DNA of 64,000 nt from an uncultured Acidobacteriota bacterium (lineage in GTDB: Bacteria > Acidobacteriota > Terriglobia > Terriglobales > Acidobacteriaceae). This document shows positions 30,901 through 36,808 of the stretch, in pieces. The first letter of the stretch is position 1; each line of letters starts with the position of its first letter. The stretch spans positions 127,381 to 191,380 of the forward strand of contig CAWEGL010000001.1 of NCBI GenBank assembly GCA_963808795.1. Reading direction: 5' to 3'. The position numbers and the translations under genes were made by a program. Below the pieces are notes generated by a model. The model saw nothing but the letters and a program-made list of their open reading frames with translations, did not search any database and was not told where the DNA came from.

Positions 30901-30916
30901 TGTGTCACTGATCACA
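30901..30916. promoter_or_regulatory. CRP-type box upstream of the sigma54 activator gene
   Basis: TGTGT-CACTGA-TCACA (9/10), 77 bp before ATG 30993. Confidence 0.6.
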
Positions 30917-30992
30917 TCCGATCGGCCCAGGAGAGAATAGCTTTCATTCAGACTCGGACCTCAACGGTGCGCGCCGGGAGGGATAGTCTGGC

Positions 30993-32417
30993 ATGAAAGT
31001 CATCTCAACCCCGGTTCTTTCCGGGCCAGGGCAAATCCAATCCGATCTCACCGCGGCGGCTCTCCACGGCATCACCAGAGCGCTGGCGTCTGTCGATCGC
31101 GCCTTCATCTGCCTGGACCCGTCGTTTTCGATTCTCCATGCGTCACATCTCCTCGACCGTTTTCTCGGCGACGGAGTATCCAAAGAGCTTTGCGGACGGC
31201 AAATCGAAGAACTGCTCGGGGCCGAGCTGTTTGGCCCGCGCGGACCGCTGCGGCAAGCCCTGCTCGACGGGCAGAAGCGCGAAGGATGGCGGGCCACCAT
31301 GAAGTTCAATGGCTCGACGCCTCGTCTGGTTTCCATTACCACCGCCCCGATCATCCAGGACAACTCGGACATCTGCGATCCCAGGGTCCGCTACCTCGTG
31401 ATCCTGCGGCCTGCCGACGACGAGGCAAGTTGCCCGAATGCCCCGGTGTTTTATTCGGGCGCAATCGCGTGCTCCCCGGCAATGCTTCGCATCTTTCGCA
31501 TGGTTGAAACGCTCCAACACAGCGAAGCGACCGTCCTAATCACCGGCGAGAGCGGCACAGGCAAGGAGGTCGTGGCCCGCGCCATTCACCAGAACTCGGT
31601 GCGAAGCGGCGGCCCCTTCGTCGCCGTGAACTGCGGCGCTCTTCCCGCCGATCTGCTCGAATCCGAGCTGTTTGGTCATGTCCGCGGGGCGTTTACCGGA
31701 GCCATTCGCGATCGCGTGGGCCGCTTCGAGCTGGCAACGCACGGCACGCTTTTCCTGGATGAAATCGGCGATCTGCCTCCGTCGCTGCAGGTGAAGCTGT
31801 TGCGCGTTTTGCAGGAACTCCAGTACCAGCGGGTCGGCGAGAGCGTTACCCGGACCACCCATGCGCGCATCATCGCCGCGACCAACGTCGATCTGCCCGC
31901 CGCGTTGCGCCAGGGACGGCTGCGCGAGGATCTCTATTATCGCCTCTGCGTCGTACCCATCGAAGTCCCGCCGCTCCGCGAGAGGAGAGAAGACATTTCC
32001 CCGCTCTCGCTGCACCTTCTGAATCGCATCGCAGCCAAGCACGGCCTGGTGCGCCGGATTTCCCCGCAGGCGATGAGAATTCTGCTCGATTACACGTGGC
32101 CAGGCAACGTGCGCGAACTGGCTAACGTCATCGAGTACGCGGTGTCCGTGGCCCGCATGGAAACGATCCTTCCGGAGGATCTTCCCGGCGAGATCGAGCG
32201 GCCGGCGCCGATGCTGGAGCCGCCGTCGGTCAGCTCGATTGGCGAAGGTACGGCGGCGCAGCCGGAAAAGATCTTGAGTGCAGAGCGCGACGTCGATGCA
32301 GCGCATCTTCGTTCCGTTCTCGATGCTCATCATTGGAACCGAACGGAAGCGGCCGAAGCCCTCGGCATCAGCAGGGTGACGCTCTGGCGCCGCATGCGGG
32401 AATTGCATCTCGCGTGA
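30993..32417 (+). CDS. Sigma54 enhancer-binding protein with a PAS-like input domain and no receiver domain
   Basis: [48 protein letters not shown]. Confidence 0.92.
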
Positions 32418-32526
32418 CCGGATCTAGCTGAGCGTTTTGATTCAGGCTGAAGCAATGTGTTACAACACGCTGTTTCAGTAATTGGCCGTGCAGACCGCAA
32501 ATCACAGAAAACAAAACAGCTACACT

Positions 32527-32543
32527 TTGGCACGCAAGGTGCT
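32527..32543 (+). promoter_or_regulatory. Sigma54 (-24/-12) promoter of the fadL-sqr operon
   Basis: TTGGCACG-caag-GTGCT with correct GG-N10-GC spacing; directly downstream of an EBP gene. Confidence 0.75.
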
Positions 32544-32618
32544 TCCTCCTCAACCAGATTCCGTTTTTTGCGGAACGCTCAGGCGATGAACCGCAAAGCC
32601 GGCTAGGCGGAGGAAGGC

Positions 32619-34058: not shown

Positions 34059-35291
34059 ATGCGGCACATGCTGATTCTCGGCGGCGGAACTGGCGGGACG
34101 ATCATGGCGAACAAGCTGGCCGGTGCATTGGACGAGCGCGACTGGCGCATTACCGTTGTCGACGGCACGGACGAGCATTATTACCAGCCGGGCTTTCTCT
34201 TTGTGCCGTTCGGCGTTTACCGGATACGAGATATCGTGCGCCCCCGGCGCCAATACCTGCCGGGAGGAGTGCGGTTCATTTTGTCGGGCATCGAGCGCGT
34301 CGATCCGCAGAAGAAATCTGTGACTCTTGCCAACGGAGAATCGCTCCGCTACGACTGCCTGATCCTGGCCACGGGAGCCGATGTTCATCCGGAGCAGATC
34401 GAGGGGCTGCTTGACGACGAGTGGGGGCGCAGCAAATTCGATTTCTATACTCCGCGCGGAGCCCAGCGTCTGGCCCAATTCCTGAAGAGCTGGCAGGGCG
34501 GGAGGCTGGTGCTCAGCATTGCGGAGATGCCGATCAAATGCCCCGTGGCTCCTCTCGAATTCCTCTTCCTCGCCGATGCCTATTTTACCGAGCGTGGAAT
34601 GCGCGACAAGGTGGATCTGCACCTCGTCACTCCGCTCGACGGAGCGTTCACCAAACCGAGGTCGAGCCGCGTGCTGGGGGACGTTCTCGAGCGCAAAGGG
34701 GTTTCGGTCACGCCCGATTTCGGACTGGCCCGCGTCGACAGCCAAGAAAAGAAACTCATCGCCTGGGACGATACCGAAGTGAAGTACGATCTGCTGGTCT
34801 CGATCCCAACCAATATGGGCGACCCGTACATTGCGCGCAGCGGCATCGGGAACGAAGTCAACTTTGTGCCGACCAATAAGCAGACGCTCGCGGCCGAAGG
34901 GCTGGAAGATGTCTTTGTGATCGGCGATACCTCGAATGTGCCGGCCTCCAAGGCGGGGTCGGTGGTGCACTTCCAATCCGAGATACTGTTCGAAAATATC
35001 ATGGAGCACATCGAGGGCAGGCCTCCGCGCGCCCAGTTCGATGGACACGCGAACTGCTTCATCGAATCCGGTTTCGGCAAGGGCATGTTGATCGACTTCA
35101 ACTATGAGACCGAGCCATTGCCCGGCGCGTTTCCGCTTCCCGGCGTAGGGCCGTTCAAATTGCTGGGCGAAAGCGCAATCAACCACTATGGAAAGCTGAT
35201 GTTCCGCTGGGTGTACTGGAACCTGCTGATTCGCGGCGTTGAATTGCCAATCGCCAACGAAATGCTGATGGCAGGAAAGCAGGTGGCGTGA
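34059..35291 (+). CDS. sqr: Sulfide:quinone oxidoreductase-like flavoprotein (type III-like)
   Basis: GGGTGG, YQPG, IKCPVAPLEF, IGD, SKAG, FDGHANCF. Confidence 0.8.
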   Translation: MRHMLILGGGTGGTIMANKLAGALDERDWRITVVDGTDEHYYQPGFLFVPFGVYRIRDIVRPRRQYLPGGVRFILSGIERVDPQKKSVTLANGESLRYDCLILATGADVHPEQIEGLLDDEWGRSKFDFYTPRGAQRLAQFLKSWQGGRLVLSIAEMPIKCPVAPLEFLFLADAYFTERGMRDKVDLHLVTPLDGAFTKPRSSRVLGDVLERKGVSVTPDFGLARVDSQEKKLIAWDDTEVKYDLLVSIPTNMGDPYIARSGIGNEVNFVPTNKQTLAAEGLEDVFVIGDTSNVPASKAGSVVHFQSEILFENIMEHIEGRPPRAQFDGHANCFIESGFGKGMLIDFNYETEPLPGAFPLPGVGPFKLLGESAINHYGKLMFRWVYWNLLIRGVELPIANEMLMAGKQVA

Positions 35292-35992
35292 TGGGCACGG
35301 CTCTGCTGGAAACGGACCGCATTGCTGAACTCGATCGCAAACTCGACTTTATTGTCGAAGAGCTTGCGAGTCTGAGGCGCTTCCGCGAAAGCGCCCAGGA
35401 TTTCGCCGCCGATCTCTCCCTGGTAGGGAAGAATGCAATGCGGGAGGCGGTCGAAGCATTCGGGACGGCCGATCTGCGTCCCGCCGAGATTGTGAGCCTC
35501 CTCAAGGCAACGCTGGCCAACGCGCGCCTGTTTGAGAGCGCGATTCAGCAGTTGCAGAGCGCGGCGGATTTCGTCCAGGACGCCCAGCCCATCCTGCGCG
35601 ACGGGATGTGCAGGGTCGTGCAAATGAACCAGGCCCTGCTGGAGAAAGGCTACTTCCAGGCTGCATCTGCCGGCGTGCGCGTGGGCGATGCGCTGGTTCG
35701 TTCGCATTCCGCCGAGGACTGGAAGCAAGTCGAGGCCAGTGTCCCGCAGTTGATCGGATTCCTGCGCGAACTCACCCGGCCCGAGGTCCTTGAGGCACTT
35801 GAGGCCATCATTCACGGTTTCGGGCGGGTGCAGGCCACGATGGATGTACACAAGTCCATCTTCGGGATTGTTCGCGATCTCAACTCGCCCGAAGCGCGCC
35901 GCGGGGTCGCGATCCTGGTCGAATTCCTGAAGGTTGTCGGCGCGCGCGCCGGCTCGGTTCAAGCGGGTTCAGTGTCAACGGATATGAGGTGA
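35288..35992 (+). CDS. DUF1641-like protein
   Basis: Helical; ends with a SIFGIVRDLNSPEARRG motif; follows sqr, which is the usual context for this family. Confidence 0.75.
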   Translation: MMGTALLETDRIAELDRKLDFIVEELASLRRFRESAQDFAADLSLVGKNAMREAVEAFGTADLRPAEIVSLLKATLANARLFESAIQQLQSAADFVQDAQPILRDGMCRVVQMNQALLEKGYFQAASAGVRVGDALVRSHSAEDWKQVEASVPQLIGFLRELTRPEVLEALEAIIHGFGRVQATMDVHKSIFGIVRDLNSPEARRGVAILVEFLKVVGARAGSVQAGSVSTDMR

Positions 35993-35995
35993 TTC

Positions 35996-36313
35996 ATGGA
36001 AACAGCGATTTTAGGCGGAAGGACGCTCGCACTCGATGCGGACGGAAATCTCGCCAACCGCAACGATTGGAACGAAAAGATCGCGCGCGAGATTGCCGCC
36101 ATCGAGGGCATTCCCGAGCTGACGCCGCAGCACTGGGCGGTCATCAATTTCATGCGCGCCGTCTTCGCAAAGGAGGGGGACTCGCCGTCGATTCGCCGCC
36201 TCACCAAAGAGAGCGGCGTGGATACCAAAACTCTCTATCAGCTCTTTCCGAAAGGGCCGGCTAAAAAAGCGGCGAGAATTGCCGGCCTGCCCAAACCCAA
36301 AGGATGTATCTGA
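35996..36313 (+). CDS. tusE: TusE/DsrC-family sulfur carrier with a single C-terminal Cys
   Basis: LYQLFPKGPAKKAARIAGLPKPKGCI. Confidence 0.92.
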   Translation: METAILGGRTLALDADGNLANRNDWNEKIAREIAAIEGIPELTPQHWAVINFMRAVFAKEGDSPSIRRLTKESGVDTKTLYQLFPKGPAKKAARIAGLPKPKGCI

Positions 36314-36337
36314 TCCTGAGCGAGGAGATGCCCAAAT

Positions 36338-36808
36338 ATGTCAGCGCAACCTATTGAAAAAGTTTCCATCGTTGTTTCCCGCGGATCGCTGGAAGGCGTG
36401 TATCCCGGCCTCATCATGGCGAATGGCGCCCGCATGGAGGGCATTGAAGCGTCACTCTTCTTCACCTTCTTCGGCTTGGACGCCATCATCAAAAAACGCA
36501 TGAACGGCCTTAAGGTCGCTACGGTAGGCAATCCGGCCATGCACATGCCAACCCTGCTGGGTGCGTTGCCGGGGATGTCGACGTTTGCGACCTCGATGAT
36601 GAAGAAGGAAATGGAGAAGATCGACATTCCGCCGGTGGCAGAATTCCTCACCATGATTCACGACGCGGGCGGCGAGATCTTTGCCTGCAAGGCAACCGTG
36701 GACATGTTCCACCTGAAACAGGACGATTTCTGTCCTGAAGTGGACGGCGTGATCTCCGTGGGCCAGTTCTATGAGAAGGCGGCAGGCGCGCAGATCATCT
36801 TCACATGA
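36338..36808 (+). CDS. DsrE2-like sulfurtransferase
   Basis: LFFTFFGL, NPAMHMP, IFACKATVDM. Confidence 0.88.
   Translation: MSAQPIEKVSIVVSRGSLEGVYPGLIMANGARMEGIEASLFFTFFGLDAIIKKRMNGLKVATVGNPAMHMPTLLGALPGMSTFATSMMKKEMEKIDIPPVAEFLTMIHDAGGEIFACKATVDMFHLKQDDFCPEVDGVISVGQFYEKAAGAQIIFT

Follow-up and report, generated by a model that had tools for sequence, protein, structure and literature searches.

A divergent FadL/TodX-family channel paired with a sigma-54 activator ahead of exchangeable sulfur operons in Acidobacteriota, a candidate route for elemental sulfur across the outer membrane

Results

A sigma-54 activator, an outer-membrane channel and sulfur genes in one locus

We analyzed a window of 64,000 nucleotides (nt) from the Acidobacteriota contig CAWEGL010000001.1 and, within it, the stretch 30901-36808, where the gene for a sigma-54-dependent activator, an enhancer-binding protein (EBP), stands directly ahead of the gene for a FadL/TodX-family outer-membrane channel. 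Genes for a sulfide:quinone oxidoreductase (SQR), a DUF1641-containing protein and two sulfur carriers follow, and all parts of the locus are on the forward strand (Table 1). An earlier note on this DNA had listed the genes as fadL, sqr, DUF1641, tusE and dsrE2, and all of them were found by family matches where it had placed them. After the gap between channel and sqr and the overlap of sqr with the DUF1641 gene, the remaining genes are separated by 3 nt and 24 nt. The gene after the DsrE2-like gene is convergent, and the unit therefore ends at 36808.

Table 1. Genes and predicted sites of the activator-channel-SQR locus, in window coordinates
Feature	Position	Strand	Basis or remark
Crp/Fnr-family regulator gene	5241-6017	-	candidate reader of TGTGA-N6-TCACA boxes
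Crp/Fnr-type box TGTGTCACTGATCACA	30901-30916		in the 111-nt gap between mdh and the activator gene
Sigma-54-dependent activator (EBP) gene	30993-32417	+	Pfam domains, GAFTGA
Distal upstream activator site, inverted repeat TGATTCA-GGC-TGAAGCA	32438-32454		approximately -90 from the -24 element
Proximal upstream activator site GTTACAAC, family consensus GTTGCAAC	32459-32466		-69 from the -24 element
Sigma-54 (-24/-12) promoter TGGCACGcaagGTGCT / TGGCACGCAAGGTGCT	32528-32543	+	same alignment columns across orthologous loci
5' leader of the channel gene	32544-32618	+	nested stem in most orthologs
FadL/TodX-family outer-membrane channel gene, 444 aa	32619-33953	+	family profile, AlphaFold (AF2) fold
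Channel-sqr intercistronic gap, 105 nt	33954-34058	+	hairpin, CTGTAACG motif
Type III SQR gene, Cys form	34059-35291	+	NF049943, Pyr_redox_2
DUF1641-containing protein gene, 234 aa	35288-35992	+	start overlaps the sqr stop by 4 nt
TusE/DsrC-family sulfur carrier gene	35996-36313	+	TIGR03342; C-terminal Cys104 alone
DsrE2-like sulfur carrier gene, last of the operon	36338-36808	+	PF13686

The channel is a divergent FadL/TodX-family protein

By itself, the channel protein gave no match in Pfam (E up to 10), in NCBIfam, or in the PDB by phmmer. Homologs are abundant, and those from Acidobacteriaceae and Terracidiphilus metagenome genomes are 70-90% identical to one another, which is unusually conserved for an outer-membrane protein; weak precomputed matches to Pfam PF03349 are recorded for many of the close homologs. 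A family profile of 71 relatives, taken from an exhaustive search that yielded 1371, matched TbuX (8.8e-42), TodX (1.7e-38), E. coli FadL (approximately 1e-21) and CymD in the PDB. The initial AlphaFold (AF2) model, made with 26 close homologs, was poor, with a predicted local distance difference test score (pLDDT) of 60, and was replaced by a model on the diverse 71-relative alignment with a pLDDT of 92.6 and a predicted template modeling score (pTM) of 0.87. When this model was searched with Foldseek, the best 24 matches were all TodX, FadL, TbuX or CymD, with template modeling (TM) scores of 0.6-0.74; TodX (3bs0) was found with an E-value of 2.6e-34 and a TM score of 0.69-0.74.

The motif N65-P66-A67, in the N-terminal hatch that plugs the barrel, is invariant in two alignments, with N65 present in 71/71 sequences of the diverse one, and it occupies mature residues 34-36 of the channel, compared with N33-P34-A35 in FadL as given in PDB titles. 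The protein shares with TodX, TbuX, CymD and FadL a signal peptide (ending LIYA, before a mature TDGHF), a Phe near the mature N-terminus and a C-terminal Phe. Because of the profile matches, the structural matches and the invariant NPA hatch motif, the channel truly belongs to the FadL/TodX family by sequence profile and predicted fold, though it has diverged from the other members, and the label fadL in the earlier note was apt for a true barrel of this family. It differs from the solved members in being only 14-16% identical to them, in falling below the Pfam threshold, in two hatch cysteines, and in lying among sulfur enzymes rather than genes of fatty-acid or aromatic catabolism. ExtI of Geobacter was ruled out as a relative of the channel, being phosphate-porin-like.

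The two hatch cysteines, Cys55 and Cys68, flank the NPA motif. In the sigma-54-linked clade 36/36 sequences have the two together, 115 other relatives have neither, and no channel sequence carries just one of them. This all-or-none pattern across the alignment fits a disulfide or a functional dithiol.

The activator-channel pair is followed by exchangeable sulfur modules

The synteny set was assembled from two scans of species-representative genomes together with look-ups of metagenome contigs, and comprised approximately 37 distinct close-clade loci; the search for loci used a 14-sequence alignment, the 71-sequence alignment being too diverse. In Acidobacteriaceae, the activator is encoded immediately upstream of the channel gene in 30 of the 32 loci with enough sequence. 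Eight loci carry behind the pair the SQR-DUF1641-TusE-DsrE2 cargo of the window, a synteny that the earlier note had proposed to check, and over approximately 35 related species the same pair also heads two further types of sulfur operon. One of these (10 loci) encodes a Rieske protein, a cytochrome b-multiheme fusion, and a molybdoenzyme of PhsA/Psr type that is exported by twin-arginine translocation (Tat) and accompanied by iron-sulfur (FeS) and NrfD subunits. The other (eight loci) encodes an ArsR- or TusA-type gene product, FlpD, two HdrA-like proteins, a QmoC-like protein and DsrE2; in a ninth Qmo-like case (L043) the module is divergent and upstream of the pair. In nine loci, unrelated genes lie behind the pair, and the channel gene can therefore stand as its own unit.

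The cargo is always on the same strand as the pair and a short distance behind it. On a maximum likelihood tree of the channel the cargo types are interleaved, with 16 label changes, and well-supported branches force at least six for SQR. Given this scatter over the tree, one channel type serves all three modules, and by these comparisons the activator-channel pair behaves as a core behind which sulfur modules have been exchanged repeatedly.

Two loci illustrate the molybdoenzyme cargo: L001 (8413-15264) and L072 (11344-20745), each with the pair followed by genes for the Rieske protein, the cytochrome b-multiheme fusion and the PhsA-like molybdoenzyme. In L072, from Terracidiphilus, the cargo continues into YeeE/YedE, YeeE-rhodanese and MOSC genes; a description of this combination of Rieske, cytochrome b-multiheme, PhsA-like, YeeE-rhodanese and MOSC proteins was not found in the literature. 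The nearest matches of the cytochrome b-multiheme fusion are ExtP/ExtM, and the Rieske protein is reminiscent of ExtO, all Ext matches being far under the family cut-offs. In two basal members of the clade (L035 and L036) the channel gene has no activator upstream despite enough sequence, and in L031, whose channel is near-identical to that of L035, the activator lies 0.9 kb upstream. The missing activators may reflect rearrangement or misassembly.

The window holds a Qmo-like module of its own at 22787-28326, 3 kb upstream of the activator and separated from it by genes for citrate synthase and malate dehydrogenase. Activator sites and a sigma-54 promoter were sought before this operon and none was found; it starts with its own ArsR-type gene.

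The sulfur link extends to distant relatives of the channel

Distant channel relatives in other phyla (38-44% identity) adjoin YeeE, rhodanese or DsrE2 genes. In Phycisphaerales (L041) a YeeE-rhodanese fusion is encoded upstream of the channel gene, and in Planctomycetaceae (L046) DsrE2 is encoded directly downstream. At 42-44% identity, the neighbors include multiheme cytochromes, cytochrome b, YeeE/YedE, rhodanese and ArsR-family regulators. The clusters in L074 (2325-8785) and L075/L076 (516-9028) encode ArsR, a multiheme cytochrome, a protein of 700 aa, cytochrome b, two YeeE/YedE proteins and a rhodanese, with a resistance-nodulation-division (RND) efflux system after them and channels without the cysteine pair; judged from gene content, they are a second, independent sulfur context for the channel family. 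Some relatives at or below 39% identity adjoin glycoside hydrolases.

Among the neighbors scanned or gene-called in 17 loci there were no genes for fatty-acid or aromatic degradation, and no methanethiol or dimethyl sulfide (DMS) enzymes were found among the neighboring genes scanned. The association of channel and sulfur genes suggested in the earlier note is thus borne out both by the three operon types and by the distant relatives, and gene neighborhoods strongly support a sulfur link of the channel clade. Because distant relatives in other phyla adjoin sulfur genes, the link is older and wider than the sigma-54 switch, although it stops short of the whole family.

A conserved sigma-54 promoter with two upstream sites precedes the channel gene

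The promoter element has one mismatch to the sigma-54 consensus. Sigma-54 matches in the window as a whole are not above chance (12 with at most two mismatches, 13 expected), and the case for the promoter rests on phylogenetic footprinting. When 31 distinct activator-channel intergenic regions were aligned, a TTGGC-N8-TGC element occupied the same columns, being found in approximately 30/32 orthologous intergenic regions. It is this conservation across orthologs, not the window match alone, that makes the predicted sigma-54 promoter real by footprinting; the earlier note had placed it at 32527.

Two further elements lie at fixed distances upstream of it. The proximal site occurs with at most one mismatch to its consensus in 28/32 loci (1.07 expected), mostly at -68 to -71, and an inverted repeat of the TGTTTCA-N3-4-TGAAACA type is found at approximately -90 in 24/32 loci (0.58 expected). 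These two predicted sites form the usual layout for an enhancer-binding protein.

The 5' leader of the channel gene has in most orthologs (L001-L069 region) a nested stem of the form CGAGA..CCG..[CGCCGC-loop-GCGGCG]..CGG.TCTCG that ends at the ribosome-binding site. Drawn by hand, the stem pairs 75% of cells versus 33-41% in slid controls, and its outer helix shows compensatory changes in seven of eight pairs. The window keeps the nested stem partly and has in addition a local hairpin, TTCCG-N7-CGGAA. RNAalifold returned no consensus structure for the leader, and an Rfam scan of 30800-37400 found no family.

In the gap between channel and sqr, neither a promoter-like site nor a strong or U-tract terminator was found. 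It contains a hairpin without a U-tract whose sequence differs from species to species (window, L012, L003, L028, L009), and a semi-conserved CTGTAACG[CT]TTG motif. The hairpin may act in partial termination or mark a processing site, and so set how much channel is made relative to the enzymes.

The activator resembles FisR in domain plan and setting

The activator matches Sigma54_activat (PF00158, 4.6e-68), AAA_lid_14 and the Fis-type HTH_8 (PF02954, 3.1e-13), and its translation contains GAFTGA. Its N-terminal sensor domain of approximately 155 residues belongs to no Pfam family above threshold; PAS (PF00989) was matched with an E-value of 0.009 and 16 bits, which is under the cut-off. Of the term PAS-type EBP used in the earlier note, the EBP part therefore stands and the PAS part is weak. 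The sensor domain is strongly conserved within an activator family of at least 437 proteins, with Cys40 and Cys128 invariant and Cys147 and Cys160 present in 30/32 sequences.

FisR is a sigma-54 activator of sqr-pdo operons, known from Cupriavidus pinatubonensis and Acinetobacter baumannii, and the Cupriavidus form uses cysteines of its regulatory domain (PMC7315123). Likened by description, the window activator is also a sigma-54 EBP built of sensor, AAA+ and helix-turn-helix (HTH) domains and is encoded near sqr. By analogy with FisR, it probably senses sulfane sulfur (persulfide or polysulfide) through its sensor cysteines. It differs from FisR in that its first target is an outer-membrane channel, sulfur carriers take the place of persulfide dioxygenase, the sensor lacks a Pfam family, and a Crp-type site lies upstream.

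A Crp/Fnr-type box precedes the activator gene

The CRP box reported in the earlier note is a predicted site with one mismatch to TGTGA-N6-TCACA, 77 nt before the activator ATG. Boxes of this type number seven in the window versus 1.16 expected, an enrichment of approximately 6-fold that 0/100 shuffles reached, and a box with at most one mismatch lies upstream of the activator in 8/29 orthologous loci versus approximately 0.5 expected, or approximately 16-fold. Two exact boxes, at 6173-6188 and 6191-6206, lie upstream of the Crp/Fnr-family gene. The enrichment in the window, the recurrence before orthologous activators and the Crp/Fnr gene in the window make a two-tier cascade plausible, at least in part of the family. 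The chain described in the earlier note, from Crp-type box through sigma-54 activator and -24/-12 promoter to the channel gene, thus gains support from conservation across approximately 30 loci.

The boxes of the window start at 4226, 6173, 6191, 6948, 10459, 30901 and 40623. Six of the seven lie between open reading frames (ORFs) taken as genes; the box at 6948 is inside a doubtful ORF of 126 aa, and one box lies in the interval that separates a 1-Cys peroxiredoxin gene from a gene for outer-membrane efflux. Their position and number suggest a local Crp/Fnr regulon that extends to the sulfur switch.

A Cys-form SQR is encoded with two sulfur carriers

The SQR matches the type III model NF049943 over its full length with 629 bits (cut-off 525), and has a Pyr_redox_2 domain and an N-terminus that binds flavin adenine dinucleotide (FAD). 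Two cysteines, Cys161 and Cys333, are present in 121/121 sequences. This best-matching model is named for a selenoprotein subtype; the gene has no in-frame TGA, and the enzyme is therefore a Cys form and not a selenocysteine (Sec) form. It also differs from described type III SQRs in being encoded behind an outer-membrane channel, in an operon with DUF1641, TusE and DsrE2.

At codon 257 (34827-34829) the window sqr has TAC, encoding Tyr, where all six syntenic orthologs have Cys and 120 wider relatives have C, V or A; TAC was confirmed by independent contigs from three soil metagenome runs. The idea that Tyr257 marks a dead SQR was rejected, since the position varies among the 120 relatives while Cys161 and Cys333 are invariant, and with such variation position 257 is probably dispensable. 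The selenoprotein subtype of type III SQR may differ at this residue.

The carrier encoded after DUF1641 has Cys104 and, at the second DsrC cysteine position, Ala93. It thus lacks the two C-terminal cysteines 11 residues apart that define DsrC, and is of TusE type. It exceeds the cut-off of the subfamily model TIGR03342 (101.6 versus 53.5) and falls below that of the TusE equivalog NF008562 (80.7 versus 191). The last protein matches DrsE_2 (PF13686) with 107 bits versus 25 and misses the equivalog NF047629 (102 versus 210), and is named DsrE2-like for this reason.

Discussion

A sulfur-linked channel clade and its published precedents

What is new here is a FadL/TodX clade that we regard as dedicated to sulfur metabolism and that forms, together with a FisR-like activator, an exchangeable cassette; its sulfur link and the sigma-54 switch are well supported by the comparison of loci. 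The established substrates of FadL-family proteins are fatty acids and monoaromatic hydrocarbons. One member, CT2230 of Chlorobaculum tepidum, belongs to a sulfide-repressed regulon and was proposed, without proof, to move hydrophobic sulfur chains (bioRxiv 10.1101/172254). By description, CT2230 is likewise a FadL-family outer-membrane protein co-regulated with sulfur genes and the subject of the same hypothesis; it differs in having a putative sulfide-dependent repressor site and no sigma-54 activator, and in not being in an operon with sqr or carrier genes. Our literature search found no paper other than the CT2230 preprint that proposes sulfur transport by FadL. The earlier note knew of no established sulfur role for FadL; with CT2230 such a role had been proposed once before.

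The passage of elemental sulfur (S0) across the Gram-negative outer membrane is an old question, and according to a study of 2023 experiments have confirmed no outer-membrane S0 transport protein in any sulfur oxidizer (PMC10045233). The locus gives a defined candidate from a known structural family, and we regard the channel as a good candidate, open to test, for the path by which water-insoluble elemental sulfur crosses this membrane.

Proposed sulfur import through the channel

We favor a reading, with a probability of roughly 0.55, in which the locus is a two-tier sulfur-responsive switch ahead of an envelope-to-cytoplasm sulfur module, and the channel passes S8 or hydrophobic polysulfanes across lipopolysaccharide (LPS), import being the favored direction. 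A Crp/Fnr-type regulator would set the level of the activator, which, bound at -69 and approximately -90, would become active when sulfane sulfur reacts with its cysteines and would open the -24/-12 promoter, the element of this chain that, with its two sites, is backed by conservation. The transcript would begin with the channel gene and probably continue through sqr to dsrE2. The channel would then pass hydrophobic sulfur, most simply S8, through the LPS into the membrane phase, as FadL does with fatty acids. SQR, facing the cytoplasm, DsrE2 and TusE belong to families of known function, and at and inside the cytoplasmic membrane they would convert sulfide and sulfane sulfur into one another and carry them. 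Both the substrate, S8 or an organic polysulfane, and the direction of transport are inferred from this context.

Hydrophobic solutes need FadL-type channels to cross LPS. At a pH below approximately 6, polysulfide breaks down to S8, a form with almost no solubility in water, and acidic soil, by favoring S8 over polysulfide, fits a FadL-type channel rather than a porin. Import is favored because the same channel heads operons for periplasmic PhsA/Psr-like reductases.

Several observations weigh against sulfur import through the channel. H2S, the substrate of SQR, requires no channel; SQR, DUF1641, TusE and DsrE2 have no signal peptides, and no component of the operon accounts for sulfur crossing the periplasm and inner membrane. 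The channel protein of the window has no match to PF03349, its two hatch cysteines may be merely a structural disulfide, nine loci have the pair without a sulfur gene behind it, and no sulfur neighbors are visible around many of the Planctomycetota relatives of 39% identity or less. The Acinetobacter FisR lacks the Cupriavidus cysteines (PMC7315123), which bears on the proposed mode of sensing. All close-clade loci come from metagenome-assembled Acidobacteriota, except for one unbinned metagenome contig (51% identity), with no cultured carrier, and a search of sequencing runs found four soil DNA runs with the sequence and no RNA runs.

Alternative explanations

The main rival reverses the flow: S8 or polysulfane, formed by SQR from toxic sulfide and accumulating in membranes, would leave through the channel, and the locus would be a detoxification operon with its own exit. 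FadL channels are passive, and flow is possible either way. Export would also suit the operon's lack of a persulfide dioxygenase to remove the SQR product, and where sqr is under FisR-type sigma-54 control, the response is one of detoxification (PMC7315123). However, orthologs of the same channel head the PhsA/Psr-like reductase and TusA-Qmo-like operons, whose natural need is a supply of S0, and the sole published proposal, that for CT2230, is tied to conditions of S0 consumption (bioRxiv 10.1101/172254). We therefore consider export unlikely, while ranking it ahead of the other alternatives.

Less probable again is a different hydrophobic cargo, either organosulfur compounds (thiols, dimethyl di- or trisulfide, thiophenes) or a non-sulfur lipid or aromatic compound, with the sulfur genes being neighbors for regulatory reasons alone. 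The nearest solved relatives are indeed channels for toluene, cymene and fatty acids, and the nine orphan pairs and the distant relatives beside glycoside hydrolases could be read in the same way. Yet the neighboring genes scanned included no enzyme for fatty acids, aromatics, methanethiol or DMS, and three unrelated sulfur modules, together with the independent YeeE, rhodanese and DsrE2 contexts in other phyla, point to inorganic sulfane sulfur.

It is improbable that the channel gene is a separate transcription unit between activator and sqr, with the channel alone, or the genes further down alone, as the activator's target. The 105-nt gap with its hairpin, the existence of orphan pairs, and the window's Qmo-like operon with its own ArsR-type start and no sigma-54 site would all be compatible with such an arrangement, but the gap has no promoter-like site or U-tract terminator, the sole conserved promoter in approximately 30 loci precedes the channel gene, and the cargo keeps to the same strand at a short distance.

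The Geobacter sulfurreducens extHIJKLMNOPQS cluster, which encodes the porin-like ExtI, a rhodanese, Rieske/cytochrome b proteins and multiheme cytochromes and is linked to selenite and tellurite (PMC5877670), resembles our loci in combining an outer-membrane barrel with chalcogen redox proteins and in the ExtO-, ExtP- and ExtM-like proteins of the Psr-type sister loci. A selenium or tellurium system of this kind is the least probable of the alternatives: the Ext likenesses are distant, the SQR, for all that its best model is named for a selenoprotein subtype, has Cys and not Sec, ExtI resembles phosphate porins and not FadL (PMC5877670), and selenite and tellurite are hydrophilic anions. TusE, DsrE2, TusA and the Qmo-like complex are families of sulfur trafficking.

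A chemically active hatch

Beyond sulfur import as outlined above, a bolder version can be formulated, which we offer as a long shot. The hatch would be chemically active: Cys55 and Cys68, which flank the NPA motif and occur together only in the sigma-54-linked clade, might form a redox gate or supply the thiol for opening the S8 ring, with the result that sulfur would enter as a protein-bound polysulfane. The Rohwerder-Sand model of sulfur mobilization is said to have long postulated a thiol-bearing outer-membrane protein; the channel would be that protein, and the activator-channel pair a portable 'sulfur entry cassette'. If this were true, acidobacteria would plug the cassette in front of whatever sulfur pathway they own.

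The locus lends itself to experiment. Its clade-specific residues can be mutated, the compact regulator and promoter could serve as a reporter in a laboratory host, and the three cargo types, the orphan pairs and the relatives without the cysteine pair are natural controls. As the locus also shows, the Acidobacteriaceae of acidic soil and peat, which are abundant and not usually counted among sulfur cyclers, are equipped with regulated genes for zero-valent sulfur. In the dsr-bearing peatland Acidobacteria reported in 2018, sqr, psr, tusA and dsrE2 were absent (PMC6018796).

Neighboring genes

The genes for citrate synthase (PF00285, 1.4e-137) and malate dehydrogenase occupy 28414-30881 of the window and are co-directional with the locus, between the Qmo-like/DsrE2 operon and the activator gene. 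The interval 37342-39161, convergent to the end of the operon on the reverse strand, encodes a protein of 390 aa that combines a CdhD-like corrinoid domain with a 4Fe-4S motif at its C-terminus and, just upstream on the same strand, an S-adenosylmethionine (SAM) methyltransferase (38511-39161). Together they could be an HgcAB-like pair for corrinoid methyl transfer.

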